64,000 bases of DNA from a virus. The translations under genes and the position numbers were made by a program. Location: the IMG/VR virus record IMGVR_UViG_3300044641_002513, positions 1 to 64,000 of that record; one strand, 5' to 3'. The notes beneath the pieces are model-generated. The model ran no database searches. It had not been told where the DNA came from and saw nothing but the letters and a program-made list of their open reading frames with translations. Below, in pieces: positions 4,914 through 27,336 of this stretch (position 1 is the first letter of the stretch; every line of letters begins with the position of its first letter).

Positions 4914-6242
4914 TTATACGTTTTTAACTCTGTTAGATATTACTTCTGTCAATTGACATAAAGTATTTCTTAAATCTTGAATAGTTTTTCTAAAAGCATA
5001 CAAACTAATTTCTTTAGGAATAATTTCGTGTTCTTTTAAAGATTCTAGTGGAGTATTCTCAATTAAGTCTTCCAACTCTTCTTGTGTGTACTCTGCATAC
5101 TCTAACTCGAAAGTATTAGTATCAATTGGAATTACTTTACCTTCATCATTGTATTCAATAGTAGCAATTGGTAAATACTCACAACATCTTAGTTTGCCTC
5201 CGTCTGTATAAGGAACGGCAATTACATGCATTGGATTAATCAATACTGCTAAGCCTACCGAGCCAAAATACCCTGATGTTAACCAACTACTATTGGCTGC
5301 GTGTAAACCTCTAGAACAAGTTCTATCTGGGTTTGCATCACATTGTTTACGGTCAATCTTAACAGGTTGTCCTAAGATAATTTCCATACGACCTGTATAG
5401 CCATCTGTGTAAACAGTTTGTTCACTTGCTTCTAAGTTTACAAATTCTACATACAACTCTTGTAAACTACCTTGGTACTCGTACAAATCCTCCTCTTCCC
5501 ACTCTTCTACCCAAAAACCATCTTCGTCTTCATATCCTTTATCTGCTTCGTAAGTTTCATCGTTAACATTTGACCACTTATCTTCGTGCATTAACTCAAA
5601 TTCTTCGTCTTCGTAATTCCATACTACTACAAAGTTTTTAGGACCTCTTTTCTGAGTTTTAATTTTTAACCATTGTTCTGCAACAAATTCGTTTCTTTCT
5701 CGTAAACCTTCGTTTTTAACATTAACATTTCTATAAGCTACAAAGTAACCGCTAGGAGTTAAAGTTAAATCGTTGTTAATTAAGAATTTATACAAATCCT
5801 CTCTACATCTTGGATCAGGATTTAACGCACATAGTCTCCAAAAATTCATCATAGCTGATAAATCTTCTTGGTTATCTCTACGTTTTGCAAACTCTAGTGC
5901 TAAGAACTCAGGCACAGTAATATTAATCCCCTTCATATACAACTTAATGCCTATTACTTCAAAATGCTCATCTCCTAAATTTCTAATACTATCCATCCAA
6001 TCTATAAGACTTTTTTGATTTAGGGCTTTTTTCTCTTCATCTTCTAATCTTTCTTCATCCTTAGTCTTAGAAACTTCAAAACAAGCTATTAAACTTTCTA
6101 CTTCATTATAATCTGATTCATTAGTGTTTAACGCTTTCTCATACAGATTAAGAATGTCTTCATTGCTGTTACAAACTTTTTGGTACATTTTAGAGCCTAT
6201 AGTACAAACTATAGTGTTACCTACTCTCATTGCTTTAATCAT
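4914..6242 (-). CDS. rIIB: rIIB-like protein
   Basis: NFW..CALNP....EDLYKFL, GYFVAYR, CD.NP..TCS.GLH, KLRCCEY; lies next to rIIA. Confidence 0.8.
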   Translation of the reverse strand: MIKAMRVGNTIVCTIGSKMYQKVCNSNEDILNLYEKALNTNESDYNEVESLIACFEVSKTKDEERLEDEEKKALNQKSLIDWMDSIRNLGDEHFEVIGIKLYMKGINITVPEFLALEFAKRRDNQEDLSAMMNFWRLCALNPDPRCREDLYKFLINNDLTLTPSGYFVAYRNVNVKNEGLRERNEFVAEQWLKIKTQKRGPKNFVVVWNYEDEEFELMHEDKWSNVNDETYEADKGYEDEDGFWVEEWEEEDLYEYQGSLQELYVEFVNLEASEQTVYTDGYTGRMEIILGQPVKIDRKQCDANPDRTCSRGLHAANSSWLTSGYFGSVGLAVLINPMHVIAVPYTDGGKLRCCEYLPIATIEYNDEGKVIPIDTNTFELEYAEYTQEELEDLIENTPLESLKEHEIIPKEISLYAFRKTIQDLRNTLCQLTEVISNRVKNV

Positions 6243-6252
6243 ACTTCTTATT

Positions 6253-6510
6253 TTAATTGTTATTTAGTTTTGTTAAATTAATAAAGTTGTCTTTTGGGAA
6301 ATAACTCTCTACACATATTCTTTTTACGTGAGGCAATGTTTCTATTTTTTTTAATGAGTGATTATACACATATTGCCAAGCATCTACATAAATTCCTTTA
6401 TCAGTTATTTTTACTACTTTTTCTTCTAGTAATCTTGCCCATATAGGTCTAAGAATAGTGTCACCTACTTCTATTAGATTGCCAAATCTATCATAATGTT
6501 CTACATTCAT
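6253..6510 (-). CDS. Hypothetical protein
   Basis: 85-aa ORF with a D..G..I.VGD motif common in small phage proteins. Confidence 0.7.
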   Translation of the reverse strand: MNVEHYDRFGNLIEVGDTILRPIWARLLEEKVVKITDKGIYVDAWQYVYNHSLKKIETLPHVKRICVESYFPKDNFINLTKLNNN

Positions 6511-6514
6511 ATTT

Positions 6515-8908
6515 TTAGCATTTACAGTGTTTAAATTTACTATTAAAATAGATTTTATAGTGAATGTTTAGAGGAAACCTATGTTTAGTTTTAAACTTGT
6601 TTTGTAGATAAATAGCTTCTGCAATAAATTCTACAATACCTCCAATGTTTTTATTAAACCTGTATCCAGAAGTATCTATAAAATCTATAATATCTAACTG
6701 CTCAGAATATCTTAATATTTTAAAGAAATCTTCTTCTATTTTTTTATCAAAACTATTATTTTGTACAGCTAGTTTATAACAAGTGTCTTGTAAAAACTTT
6801 TCATCCCCATATATTCTATTTTCTGCATCTATTAGTTTATTAAACTTTGAAAAAGTATCTGATAACATTTTTAAATCTGAAGAAACAGTAGGGCTTAACA
6901 CTTTAAGTAACTTTATTCTATTTTCATCTGCCAGCATTCTTTTTAACTTACTAAATGCGTCTGAATGGTTTTTATAAAGCTTAACCATACTAACCATTCT
7001 GCGAAAAACTTTATTTTCTTCTGATAAGAAACTTTCCATTGTAACTTGATTTTTTACATTTTTTAATTTTTTTAAATTAGTAGGAGCTACTTCACAATAT
7101 TCTAAATACTTATCTGGAGTTTTTGTAAGAGCTTTATAAGTAAGATATACAAGCCTCATATTTCTATTAACTTCAGGCGTAGCATCATTAGAGTTAAGGA
7201 AAAATAAGGTTCTATTACTACCTAAAAAATCAGATACTTTTCTTTTTTCTGTATTTTTAGAATCCGAAGTATTAAAATAAAACGTAGAAGTTTTAACTTG
7301 AATTTCTGTAGTATCTCTTTTTGCTTTTGTCTTTTTTTGAGATTCTAACCATTCTTTAGTAGGCATTACTTTATCGTAACTAGTAGTTTTATCAATAACT
7401 TCTTTTTGTATTATTTTTTGATAAGCAGTAATAATACCTCTCCACTTGTCTTTTGATACAGTTTTAAGTTTTAACGTACTTACATAATACTTTAAGTATA
7501 ACCTAGTCTTTTTTCTAATAAAAAACAAAACATCTTTTTTAAAAGTGTGTTTAATAAACTTACTTTTACGAGGTTCGTGTTCTTGAGAAATTCTCATTAC
7601 TAGTTGATACGGACTTCTATTTGCTTTTGTTAACAACGCACCTGCATCACCATTATACTTTTGAAATCTAGCAGAAAACTGGCCACTAGTATAGTAGTCA
7701 AAGAATAAACTAGTATAGTCTTTAGGCAACATAAATGCTGCTAAACCTGCATCTTGAAAAGGTTTATAATAATAGCCATTCTCTTGAATAGAAAATAATC
7801 CATTCTGCTTTAAGTTTAAAGCAATTTGATTTTGAGCAAAATATAAAGTAGGAACTTCATTTCTTTTTACATAAAACTCTTCAATTGTACTACATTCTTT
7901 AGAACTTTCTGCCCATCTTTTTCTTAACTCTGTTTCAAATTCTATTAGCTTTTTGTAAATAGCTTCTTTAGTTCTAGGAGTATACTTAACGTCTTCTCTT
8001 GTTTGAATAACATCTAGTTCACCTATTTGAAATTGAAGTGCTACAGGAAAATCTATTCTAGGTATCTCAAGTATCTTCCAATCTATTGGATAAGCTACTT
8101 TACCTAGGCAAATATGCAAATCGTTTTGAGGAGTTTCTCCAGTAGTAGCTAACCACGAATCGCCTTTAATAATCTGAAAGTTATTAGGAATCTCACAGTA
8201 ATAAGAAAAGTAAACATTGTCAAAATAAGCTAACTGTTCTTTACAGTTGTTTCTAAACTTTGCTACATCTTCTATTTCTATATAAACTTTAATCTCCGTG
8301 CCATTTCTTTCTGTTGTTGCCGTTTCTCCAATAATATCTAGTCTAGGACCATTCTCACCTTTTCTTAGCATATAACTATACTCTATGCTATTATATCTAG
8401 TACGAATAAAAACTATATCAGCATAACTTAAACCGCTCTTAGAGCCCATACCGAACGCACCTATCATCGTATTACTTGTTTCTTTAGTAGATTTCAAGTA
8501 ATTAACAAATACATCTTTAATTCTACTTGGAGATAAGCCTACACCAAAATCTTCAGTTGCCCAAAACCAACCTGTATCATCTTTGTCAATAGTAACAATT
8601 ACAGCATCGTCATTAAAAATTTCTACAGATTTTTTTAGAGCTTCTAACTCTTCGATTGGAGCAGTTTGATAGATAGAATATTCGTTTTTAACTTCTTCTA
8701 TCGAGTGCTCTTTAATAAATTTAGCCTCTGCGTGACTGTCAAAACTATTACTAACATATTCTCTTACAACTGCACCAATAGGATTCTTGTAAGGATTTTG
8801 TAGCATATCCCACAGTTTATGCATGTCATGTTTGCTAATAGTAGCATCGTAACCATCAAAAGAAGCATTAGAAGTAAAATCAATTTGTTTTTTTGTTTCT
8901 AATTTCAT
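6515..8908 (-). CDS. rIIA: rIIA-like protein with N-terminal GHKL/Hsp90-like ATPase
   Basis: YKNPIGAVVREYVSNSFDSH, DFGVGLS, STK...IGAFGMGSKS, NGTEI. Confidence 0.85.
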   Translation of the reverse strand: MKLETKKQIDFTSNASFDGYDATISKHDMHKLWDMLQNPYKNPIGAVVREYVSNSFDSHAEAKFIKEHSIEEVKNEYSIYQTAPIEELEALKKSVEIFNDDAVIVTIDKDDTGWFWATEDFGVGLSPSRIKDVFVNYLKSTKETSNTMIGAFGMGSKSGLSYADIVFIRTRYNSIEYSYMLRKGENGPRLDIIGETATTERNGTEIKVYIEIEDVAKFRNNCKEQLAYFDNVYFSYYCEIPNNFQIIKGDSWLATTGETPQNDLHICLGKVAYPIDWKILEIPRIDFPVALQFQIGELDVIQTREDVKYTPRTKEAIYKKLIEFETELRKRWAESSKECSTIEEFYVKRNEVPTLYFAQNQIALNLKQNGLFSIQENGYYYKPFQDAGLAAFMLPKDYTSLFFDYYTSGQFSARFQKYNGDAGALLTKANRSPYQLVMRISQEHEPRKSKFIKHTFKKDVLFFIRKKTRLYLKYYVSTLKLKTVSKDKWRGIITAYQKIIQKEVIDKTTSYDKVMPTKEWLESQKKTKAKRDTTEIQVKTSTFYFNTSDSKNTEKRKVSDFLGSNRTLFFLNSNDATPEVNRNMRLVYLTYKALTKTPDKYLEYCEVAPTNLKKLKNVKNQVTMESFLSEENKVFRRMVSMVKLYKNHSDAFSKLKRMLADENRIKLLKVLSPTVSSDLKMLSDTFSKFNKLIDAENRIYGDEKFLQDTCYKLAVQNNSFDKKIEEDFFKILRYSEQLDIIDFIDTSGYRFNKNIGGIVEFIAEAIYLQNKFKTKHRFPLNIHYKIYFNSKFKHCKC

Positions 8909-23648: not shown

Positions 23649-23755
23649 TGAAGTGGACAGGATTCGAACCTGCAAGATGACATTCCGACTGCGCAGGAGC
23701 TACCTCGCGAGTATTCATCACTTCTTGTCGCGTCTACCAATTCCGCCACCACTTC
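23649..23755 (-). ncRNA. tRNA-Leu-like RNA with an abnormal elongated central arm (107 nt)
   Basis: Acceptor GAAGUGG/CCACUUC plus A73, D-arm UGGCGGAAUUGGUAGACGC, T-arm GCAGG-UUCGAAU-CCUGU; ~55 nt replaces the anticodon and variable arms; no encoded CCA. Confidence 0.8.
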
Positions 23756-25638: not shown

Positions 25639-25672
25639 TGTTTATGTTTTAAAGGTTAATAACTAAAATAAA

Positions 25673-25788
25673 TAATACACCACAGTTGTAATAGAAGCAT
25701 TCCCTGCTTGATTACTTCTACAAGACCTTACGTATACACAGCAGTCCGAAGGTATTACAACTGTCTAACCTAAGTTAGTGGTGTATTA
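25673..25788 (-). ncRNA. Structured intergenic RNA resembling the twister-like element
   Basis: 11-bp and 12-bp inverted repeats plus inner hairpins. Confidence 0.6.
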
Positions 25789-25795
25789 ATTCTGA

Positions 25796-26098
25796 TTATT
25801 TTAATACTGGCAATTCTTCATAGTGATAACTACTGCTAGTAGTATCTCTCATAGCATGTAAATAGTTACAATAGTCTAATTCAGGATCAGAACTTACATA
25901 ACCATTATCAATACAATGTGATGTATAGTCTTCATAATTAAGAATTTCTTCTTCTATAGTAGACTCTACTATATCAGCAATTTTTTGTTTAGCAAGTTCT
26001 TCAGTGCTATAAACACCAACTATACTAGTTTCAGATTGACAATAATCATCATCTGTATCACGTATAAATGTCCAAAAAACAATGTATACTTTCTTCAT
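25796..26098 (-). CDS. Hypothetical protein
   Basis: MKKVYIV...IVGVYST.E.A, a common small early phage protein pattern. Confidence 0.7.
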   Translation of the reverse strand: MKKVYIVFWTFIRDTDDDYCQSETSIVGVYSTEELAKQKIADIVESTIEEEILNYEDYTSHCIDNGYVSSDPELDYCNYLHAMRDTTSSSYHYEELPVLK

Positions 26099-26155: not shown

Positions 26156-26356
26156 TTATTCTGGATTCATAAACACTTCATAAGTAGTTTCTGATAATCT
26201 ATCTACTCTATATGGTTTTTTACCATTAAGAATATTATCAGCCCACCACTTATTTTGTTCTCTTATTGACTGTCTTAGTCCAGATTCTCTAAATGAATCC
26301 ATTGATACTTTTAATAAAGCATCTTGTTGTTCTTGAGTTATTGTTATTACTTGCAT
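26156..26356 (-). CDS. Hypothetical protein
   Basis: Start reassigned to MQVITI because the upstream extension overlaps the ribozyme-like element. Confidence 0.6.
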   Translation of the reverse strand: MQVITITQEQQDALLKVSMDSFRESGLRQSIREQNKWWADNILNGKKPYRVDRLSETTYEVFMNPE

Positions 26357-26405
26357 AATAAATATATTTTTAAGTGAATAAATAAAGTTTCTATAAGTTA
26401 ATAAT

Positions 26406-26557
26406 CCCTCTGCACTCAACTTGTAGTCAGTAGCTTTTGACATTCAGGATTTTAAATCCATCAGTACTACCTTTGCTGTTTTAAACCAAAGAATAAAACC
26501 ATCCTGGCCAGATATACTACAAGTTGTCTACCCTTGGGAAGTGAGAATGGTGCATTA
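26406..26557 (-). ncRNA. Candidate twister self-cleaving ribozyme with a large P5 insert
   Basis: UAA-UGCA-CC ... UCCCAAGG ... 11-bp P5 ... UGCA-GAGGG; P1 is not formed. Confidence 0.6.
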
Positions 26558-26694
26558 CAAAAGACTAAAAGTTGTAGAGAGAATGCATCAATATCTCTAC
26601 CTTTCCAAATTTTTAAATGCATTTCTTCTAACAACCTCACATGTATCCCTACATGTTACAAAGAAAGCTTTTAGTCTTGGTGGATGGTTTTTTG
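26558..26694 (-). ncRNA. Multi-stem structured RNA
   Basis: AAGACUAAAAG/CUUUUAGUCUU closing stem, with ACAUGUA/UACAUGU and GUAGAGA/UCUCUAC inside. Confidence 0.55.
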
Positions 26695-26786
26695 TACTCT
26701 CACAAGGTTGCAATCCTTGAAGTATGTGACACATTTGGAATGTACCTAATCGAAAAGGTATTCACATTACCTGCTTGGATGAGAGT
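26695..26786 (-). ncRNA. tRNA-like element (7-bp acceptor-like stem plus 5-bp/7-nt T-like arm)
   Basis: ACUCUCA/UGAGAGU-A, CAAGG-AUUGCAA-CCUUG, stemless GG-containing D-like loop, branched central arm. Confidence 0.55.
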
Positions 26787-26864
26787 AATTAATTAAGCCA
26801 TAATATTATTAATATATATGGCTTGAGTATATAAGCAAAGAACCCTAAACGCAAAGCGGTGGTC

Positions 26865-27131
26865 TTAGACCACTGCTTTGAAGAACCCTAACTCGTTGGG
26901 TTTCACGAACTTAACTACACTTAAGTCAACTTTTGCAAGAGCTAACTGTGCTTGTTCGACTGTGATTCCTTGGTTAAGTATCATTGAGCCAAACTCGGTG
27001 ATAGTCTTAATGCCTGCGAAGTCAGCAGTACGCTTGAAACATACCATAGTTCTGGTTTCTTTGTCTCCAGTTGGTGCATTGTCAACCCAAACTGGAACTG
27101 TAATTTCGATAATTTTGTGAATTGTCATCAT
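26865..27131 (-). CDS. Hypothetical protein, first gene of the leftward block
   Basis: 88-aa ORF with an A-rich start context. Confidence 0.7.
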   Translation of the reverse strand: MMTIHKIIEITVPVWVDNAPTGDKETRTMVCFKRTADFAGIKTITEFGSMILNQGITVEQAQLALAKVDLSVVKFVKPNELGFFKAVV

Positions 27132-27198: not shown

Positions 27199-27336
27199 AG
27201 TAACCACTTCTGTACGTTCTACAATAAAAAAATAATATAGTAACCACCTCTATACACTCTTAAATATTTTATATAAAAACAGTAACCACTTCTGTATTGT
27301 CTGGGGGTATAAAAAATATACTAACCACCTCTGCAT
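27199..27336 (+). repeat. Four ~17-bp iteron-like direct repeats at ~40-bp spacing
   Basis: A(G/C)TAACCAC(T/C)TCT(G/A)(T/C)A at 27199, 27239, 27281 and 27320, in the strand-switch region. Confidence 0.8.

Follow-up and report, generated by a model that had tools for sequence, protein, structure and literature searches.

The analysed window (64,000 nt) covers the opening 64 kb of a virus record in IMG/VR that is 88.9 kb long. Its terminase, its portal protein and its major capsid protein have matches among the PHROG phage families, and the capsid protein shows about 30% identity to the capsids of Bacteroides crAss-like, Flavobacterium and Cellulophaga phages. The source phage is a crAss-like freshwater (lake) phage and its DNA is also present in many lake-water metagenomes; among the public runs listed as carrying phage sequence there was no RNA run. 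A RIIB homologue of 442 aa and a RIIA homologue of 797 aa are encoded next to each other at 4914-8908 of the window (minus strand). The coding strand changes near 27.2-27.9 kb, and leftward from 27131 the ORF list and Pfam show a run of small genes without known families. The divergent intergenic region (27200-27335, plus strand) holds four direct copies of GTAACCACYTCTRYA about 40 nt apart, with 0.1 expected by chance, and these could be early promoters or protein-binding sites. Directly downstream of the first gene of the leftward block (gene 1) lies an RNA cassette on the minus strand, with the following features in the order of transcription:

26865-27131, minus strand: gene 1, first of the leftward block, 88 aa, no Pfam family (ORF list, translation, Pfam scan)
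26795-26880, minus strand: two hairpins, 26880-26852 and 26824-26795, between gene 1 and the cassette (from the sequence)
26694-26787, minus strand: tRNA-shaped scaffold RNA (alignment, pair counts, model R2)
26558-26694, minus strand: middle structured RNA, 135-138 nt (RNAalifold on six copies, metagenome copies)
26398-26557, minus strand: twister-class variant of type P1 with no P3 and a long P5 (alignment, parse of 58 copies, model R1)
26156-26356, minus strand: gene 2, 66 aa, no family (ORF list, Pfam)

For gene 1 a protein-based search for relatives returned a single locus only, L002, which encodes a 91% identical protein. The hairpin at 26880-26852 scores as terminator-like, and both hairpins between gene 1 and the cassette could serve as 3'-end protection or as weak terminators for the gene 1 mRNA.

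The preliminary description had seen a tRNA-like element, a multi-stem RNA and a twister-like element in tandem after the first early gene, and all three are indeed present at the positions it gave, on the minus strand between 26787 and 26398. Viewed in isolation, the region would not stand out. Rfam at gathering thresholds gave no match in the cassette, and a search of 23-28 kb at E<=10 returned at 26.4-26.8 kb only a chance-level match to Afu_254 and none to twister, hatchet, pistol, hammerhead or HDV. ARAGORN found 0 tRNA genes in the window, and blastn of this cassette and of one relative's cassette against GenBank phages gave no match. The folding energy of the 401-nt stretch is unremarkable compared to shuffles (z = -0.84, not significant). 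The support for the cassette comes from comparative data. Synteny and covariation across related phages, which had been proposed as a check, were examined, and each of the three elements turned out to be conserved well above chance. Judged by these comparisons, the cassette is composed of three independent, conserved and exchangeable RNA modules with sharp borders. The locus is real and unusual: neither Rfam 15 nor the literature searched contains the families of the scaffold and the middle RNA, and the ribozyme is a new variant within a class already known.

The first module, the scaffold, is built from these parts:

U26787 and ACUCUCA (26786-26780) paired with UGAGAGU (26702-26696) and A26695: closing stem, 8 bp
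26779-26770: invariant UCCAAGCAGG
following UCCAAGCAGG: variable core, 50 nt in the window
26719-26703: T-arm-like hairpin CAAGG-AUUGCAA-CCUUG
C26694: nucleotide trailing the scaffold

Its consensus reads U-ACUCUCA-UCCAAGCAGG-(47-116 nt, variable)-CAAGG-RUUGCAA-CCUUG-UGAGAGU-AC, and all 12 of the 12 pairs are formed in 20 of 20 aligned copies, four of them with compensatory change (variants ACUCUUG/CAAGAGU, ACUCUUA/UAAGAGU, ACUCCUA/UAGGAGU and CAGGG/CCCUG). The 5' motif was detected in at least 119 contigs of IMG/VR, a further 26 and then 55 copies were recovered, and the scaffold model R2 finds a single copy in the 88.9-kb genome with 93.6 bits. Of the earlier label 'tRNA-like' the covarying scaffold is real, but the element fails every tRNA test. 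ARAGORN never calls it in 30 loci, and the Rfam tRNA model has no match at 26.7 kb even at E<=10. We rejected a tRNA identity because there is neither a D nor an anticodon arm, the RUUGCAA loop is not a T loop and the core varies between 47 and 116 nt. The resemblance to a tRNA is limited to a closing stem that stacks on a hairpin of 5 bp and a 7-nt loop, giving 7 + 5 bp in tRNA style. U(-1) precedes the stem in 53 of 55 copies and the tail AC follows it in 49 of 55, and U(-1) can pair with the A of that tail to give 8 bp. The pairing of U(-1) with the would-be discriminator A speaks against an action of RNase P or RNase Z on the scaffold. Since the tRNA tests fail as well, cutting of the scaffold by these nucleases, which the preliminary description had assumed, would be a guess, and we treat it as a hypothesis only.

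The last module, the ribozyme, can be parsed as follows:

U26557, A26556 and A26555: UAA triplet, with the predicted cut between U26557 and A26556
26554-26550 with 26415-26411: P2
26546-26541 with 26531-26527: P4, one bulged C
26540-26532: loop UUCCCAAGG
26538-26536 (CCC) with 26408-26406 (GGG): T2 pseudoknot
26526-26516 with 26427-26417: P5, stem CAACUUGUAGU/ACUACAAGUUG, covarying
26428-26515, minus strand: P5 cargo, 88 nt, variable, holding GGAUGGUUUU

The family follows the consensus UAA-UGCAC-CAUU-CUCAC-UUCCCAAGG-GUGAG-(CAGUUGUAAU ... AUUACAACUG)-A-GUGCA-GAGGG, and the family model R1 scores the copy in the window with 79.5 bits. In an alignment of 50 copies P2 is paired to 99.2% with three covarying pairs, P4 to 98% with covariation at five of five pairs, and T2 to 100% with compensatory changes; among 58 parsed copies P2 shows eight and P4 twelve pair types, and T2 is formed by CCC/GGG in 50, CCA/UGG in four and CAC/GUG in three copies, with one exception. 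Taken over all 30 pairs, 92% are formed in the 50 copies against 84% in shuffles, a value reached by none of 500 shuffles, and for P2, P4 and T2 no shuffle or slid register comes near the observed pairing. The UAA triplet precedes P2 in 54 of 58 copies (75 of 80 and 90 of 94 in wider scans) and is lost in the relative L117. The T1 candidate C20-G38 is invariant in 50 of 50 copies and so gives no covariation signal, while the adjacent C pairs within P2 instead. P1 has on average 2.9 contiguous bp compared to 1.5 with shuffled partners (reached in 0 of 1000 shuffles), with 64% of the cells paired and 0 bp in 11 of 58 copies. The twister-like element of the preliminary description can thus be recognised as a true twister-class variant by the covariation of P2, P4 and T2 together with the UAA triplet. 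From these alignments we assign 26557-26398 to a distinct variant within the twister class with predicted catalysis, and we infer self-cutting between U26557 and A26556. The copy in the window retains UAA, the catalytic G, P2 and T2 as well as the loop, but with a bulged P4 and a P1 of 0 bp it is not certain to be active.

The comparison with twister type P1 (RF03160, clan CL00120) was made element by element, with the order checked on a canonical copy in L033. Both share the arrangement (P1)-UAA-P2-junction-P4 with a UCCCAAG loop-P2'-GAGGG-(P1'), T2 between the CCC of the loop and GGG, the conserved G within GAGGG and the A that follows the scissile U, and P5 is a permitted optional stem of this type. 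In contrast, the phage variant has no P3 and a P2 of 5 bp, its T1 partners are C(C)/GG and not GC/GC, and P5 is always present, with the conserved base CAGUUGUA and a cargo of 40-120 nt. Many copies, that of the window among them, have a weak P1 or none, and the variant is missed by Rfam models and nearly confined to uncultured phages. The window copy does not reach the Rfam gathering threshold for twister and gives no match even at E<=10; the Rfam twister model requires P3 and has no P5. A pattern built from the long inner stem matched in at least 119 IMG/VR contigs and a 5'-half pattern without the inner stem in at least 120 further or overlapping contigs, where 89 of 104 new copies had a matching 3' half, so that the family is present in more than 200 phage contigs. 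Among GTDB genomes the 5'-half pattern had 120 matches with the full motif in three of them, and the remainder corresponds to the chance level for 17 specified bases in 596 Gb. As only these three are real and none was found in GenBank phages, the family is essentially confined to uncultured phages and almost never cellular. The P5 cargo of the window had no match in other IMG/VR contigs, and AAGCAGG is not enriched as a shared motif (2 found, 1.1 expected).

Between scaffold and ribozyme lies the middle RNA:

5' end: leader ACAAAAAACCAUCCACC, single-stranded
26678-26668 with 26571-26561: closing stem
further parts: a short hairpin and a long hairpin

Six copies, about 90% identical, fold with RNAalifold into one consensus structure of 36 pairs, four of them compensatory, which bears out the multi-stem RNA proposed before. 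The 17-nt 5' leader is unpaired and nearly invariant and includes AAAACCAUCCACC; its complement is GGUGGAUGGUUUU. Copies are found in the window, in L072, L100, L117, L124 and L126 and in nine metagenome contigs, always preceded by a scaffold, and these scaffolds differ in their core. In most of these contexts the twister starts +133 to +135 after the leader motif, and six different P5 cargos follow. A protein-coding reading of 26597-26734 and of a start at 26443 was rejected on account of the compensatory substitutions and of a 1-nt insertion in one copy.

The preliminary description had made its reading depend on a conserved order of the elements, and the order scaffold, RNA, twister is indeed conserved: a scaffold followed by a twister within 600 nt or less on the same strand was found in 20 and 12 cases, the opposite order in one to six. 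The RNA ends predicted at 26694 and 26557 coincide with conserved module borders, with homology breakpoints between strains and with joints of 132-133 nt. L002, the close relative via gene 1, is 94% identical up to position 26789 of the window and mosaic from there on, the remaining similarity being short islands that correspond to both ends of each proposed element. In four lake metagenomes the homology of contigs breaks at 26787-89, 26690-94, 26557-61, 26398-400, 25785-90 and 25673. Two contigs join 26557 to 26691 and 26561 to 26694, so that the middle RNA, 132-133 nt, is missing or exchanged there as a single unit. The inserts between the conserved parts are diverse: 18 sequence families are represented among 33 scaffold-twister spacers, which are mostly structured and 60-150 nt long, and the scaffold cores and P5 cargos also differ greatly in length and sequence. 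A twister is, however, no obligatory partner. In a set chosen by the scaffold alone a clear twister follows 17 of 50 scaffolds and a motif similar to its 3' half follows six more, 27 of 50 have no twister within 700 nt, and in L355 and L357/L360 the middle RNA stands directly before a gene.

We consider the ribozyme-assisted production of a discrete small RNA as the best single reading of the cassette, with the chances for and against it about balanced, and favour it on account of the conserved order and the sharp borders; mRNA processing in cis comes second. According to this model the leftward early transcript would carry a modular RNA-processing cassette of three exchangeable modules. Cutting by the twister would leave a 2',3'-cyclic phosphate on the upstream RNA and a 5'-OH with a tightly folded leader on the gene 2 mRNA, and a small non-coding RNA would thereby have its 3' end fixed. 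Should a host nuclease cut at the 3' side of the closing stem of the scaffold, the product would be the 137-nt middle RNA (26694-26558), and if cutting took place at the 5' side only, scaffold and middle RNA would be released together as an RNA of about 230 nt. The leader AAAACCAUCCACC of the middle RNA would then most likely pair with or bind a host target in trans, and scaffold core, spacer RNA and P5 cargo would be swappable payloads.

A serious rival, possible though somewhat doubtful and perhaps coexisting with the release of a small RNA, is that the modules punctuate the polycistronic early mRNA in cis. Twister, scaffold (via a host nuclease) and, in relatives, hatchet would each cut at their own 5' side, so that every downstream cistron would begin with a compactly folded structure, located 20-60 nt ahead of the start codon, and the upstream hairpins would guard the 3' end of the cistron before. 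The stability and translation of the small early genes would be uncoupled in this way, as a natural counterpart of ribozyme insulators, and the middle RNA would be an extra 5'-UTR element and not a trans-acting RNA. This has to be taken seriously because scaffolds and middle RNAs occur without a twister, with genes starting nearby. A gene often begins 30-45 nt after a scaffold that has no twister, and the gene follows the middle RNA immediately in L355 and L357/L360. Measured from the end of the module to the next ORF that starts with ATG, the distance shows a peak at 20-60 nt, which includes 75 of 157 twisters and 21 of 41 scaffolds, and the ATG of gene 2 falls into this peak, 49 nt past the GAGGG of the twister. 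Such a spacing suits action in cis on the mRNA and equally the release of RNAs that act in trans. Hairpins comparable to those upstream of the cassette are also seen before the scaffold in other loci, and processing of polycistronic transcripts is a proposed role of bacterial ribozymes (PMC6765202). However, a single ribozyme would be enough to insulate gene 2, yet three modules are present within 390 nt. The middle RNA keeps about 90% identity and its near-invariant unpaired leader despite swapped neighbours, and simple end protection leaves the long P5 cargos and scaffold cores (40-120 nt) unexplained, some of which are common to otherwise different phages.

We regard it as improbable that the modules are selfish or near-neutral, that is recombination-prone repeats or remnants of mobile RNA or DNA which spread as scaffolds among related lake phages while their inserts drift without a function for the phage. 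The mosaicism with homology breakpoints exactly at the module borders would fit such an origin, as would the same modules in many combinations, degenerate copies without the catalytic nucleotides and AU-rich TTAA-like flanks at several module ends. Yet all modules lie on one strand, the transcribed one, in 31 of 31 loci with at least two modules, their order is strict, and compensatory changes keep the RNA pairing including the pseudoknot. Furthermore, there is one copy per genome of the scaffold and likewise of the active-type twister, and neither a transposase nor a reverse transcriptase was found near the cassette in the ORF list and the Pfam scan. A MITE or transposon with TTAA target duplication was rejected on the same compensatory pairing, pseudoknot included, and on the location of all copies on the transcribed strand.

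Equally hard to maintain is the idea of one composite RNA, in which pairing of the leader with the P5 cargo tethers the upstream RNA, replaces P1 and gates cleavage. The preliminary description had reported a 10-nt complement linking the middle RNA to the ribozyme insert, and AAAACCAUCC at 26691-26682 and GGAUGGUUUU at 26504-26495 are present exactly as given, but the link is not conserved. The duplex has -17.1 kcal/mol compared to -7.1 +/- 2.1 for shuffled cargo, matched by 0 of 300 shuffles (p about 0.026 for the complement in this segment pair); the cargo site is the sole match of at least 10 nt to the leader in the 88.9-kb phage genome, L100 has a weaker counterpart of 7 nt, and the window twister does lack P1. 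Against this, pairing is missing in seven of nine cargo contexts with the same leader, 42% of the shuffled versions of the whole region have a self-complement of at least 10 nt, GGUUUU can pair locally within the cargo, the long-range helix is missing from the MFE fold, and the middle RNA can be lost or replaced as a unit. The complement is probably incidental.

Coming back to the release of discrete small RNAs, a bolder form of this reading, which we think rather unlikely at present, is that in these crAss-like lake phages cassettes of ribozyme and tRNA-shaped scaffold, with twister P5, scaffold core and intervening spacer as carriers, express and excise a fast-evolving and recombining repertoire of small structured RNAs from the first transcript onwards, which act in trans on host factors. 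Such RNAs may for example be decoys or antisense RNAs against defence or RNA-processing systems. The function in anti-defence or host takeover that the preliminary description had suggested is speculation.

Several known systems show similar arrangements. In mitochondrial tRNA punctuation and in MALAT1-mascRNA a tRNA-shaped fold within a longer transcript serves as a handle for RNase P and RNase Z. By analogy, the scaffold fold could be a nuclease handle that defines RNA ends; in contrast to these cases it has no D and anticodon arms, a non-canonical 7-nt loop RUUGCAA and an 8-bp closing stem. Theta (minimal HDV-like) ribozymes adjoin tRNAs in gut phages (PMC10879173), where a phage ribozyme follows a tRNA-shaped RNA directly and, by cutting at its own 5' side, determines how the RNA before it ends, as is predicted here. 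The present cassette differs from them in its ribozyme class, in an upstream element that is not a decoding tRNA and in the separate cargo RNA that is usually found between the two. Neither twister nor crAss-like phages are mentioned in the theta paper (PMC10879173), and the literature searched contained no link of twister to crAss-like phages. Small self-cleaving ribozymes, twister and hatchet among them, cluster beside phage-like genes in bacteria, and their purpose is a standing question (PMC6765202). Twister and hatchet are likewise close together beside phage genes here, and the difference is a defined setting, the early small-gene operons of crAss-like lake phages, with a fixed order, a new scaffold partner outside Rfam and hypervariable payloads.

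What twister, hatchet and further small ribozymes do in bacteria and in phages is a question of long standing (PMC6765202), and the locus provides a concrete setting for it. It offers a large phage-specific twister subfamily with a payload-bearing P5 and a new partner RNA family outside Rfam, and the fixed order in early operons together with the sharp borders allows exact RNA ends to be predicted. Should the payload idea be true, the cassette would give phages a new way of using RNA as infection begins, and designs of ribozyme-assisted RNA expression would have a precedent in nature; if the repertoire does act in trans, self-cleaving ribozymes would have a defined biological job in phages.

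Three more elements in the vicinity had been connected with the cassette in the preliminary description:

25669-25796, minus strand: degenerate relative of the twister scaffold (model R1, 34 bits, E = 1.5e-6)
26.1 kb: a hairpin only
23649-23755, minus strand: tRNA with a 45-nt insert (Rfam tRNA 37.4 bits, threshold 29)

The element at 25.7 kb has the same P5 stem and closing helix with a cargo of its own and lacks the CCCAAGG loop and GAGGG; conserved copies are present in L002:4485-4640 and L077:3500-3660, and it is probably a non-cleaving three-way junction. The tRNA at 23.7 kb has textbook acceptor, D and T arms, its 45-nt insert replaces the normal anticodon or variable region, and it is missed by ARAGORN. 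Rfam found no hatchet (RF02678) in the window. Related phages do carry hatchets (L086:4453-4619, minus strand; L084:8766-8903, plus strand; L067:2899-3036, minus strand; L013:46-208, plus strand) with 79-83 bits (Rfam threshold 51), each with a long insert and located in the operons of scaffold and twister, 0.7-1.5 kb upstream of them on the same strand. In L033 a near-canonical twister adjoins the variant twister.

Further structured elements were observed in the related loci. A twister subtype of the form UUAAUCAG-CUCCCAAGGGUGAG-(P5)-AGUGCAGAGGG is present in L006:60-175, L015:8440-8575, L094:10330-10465 and some 25 further loci; of the twister it retains the loop and the 3' half, and 5' strands for P2 and P4 are not visible. 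In other subtypes this 3' half is paired within a simple nested helix (CCCUUUGCAC... or ACUCUCU...). A cargo hairpin of P5 with the canonical tRNA T loop UAGGUUCAAAUCCUA occurs in L070:10156-10232 and L090:4488-4564. Sub-threshold matches to the alpha-proteobacterial tmRNA model (threshold 50) lie in L100:4483-4638 (plus strand, 35.9 bits) and L021:2187-2343 (plus strand, 23.8 bits) and may represent another tRNA-like element. Finally, a recurrent structured module without an Rfam match starts with UACUGGGAGCAUGUGACCAUGAAAGAGGCAUGC directly after the twisters in L002:4640-4800, L072, L077 and L100:2115-2300.
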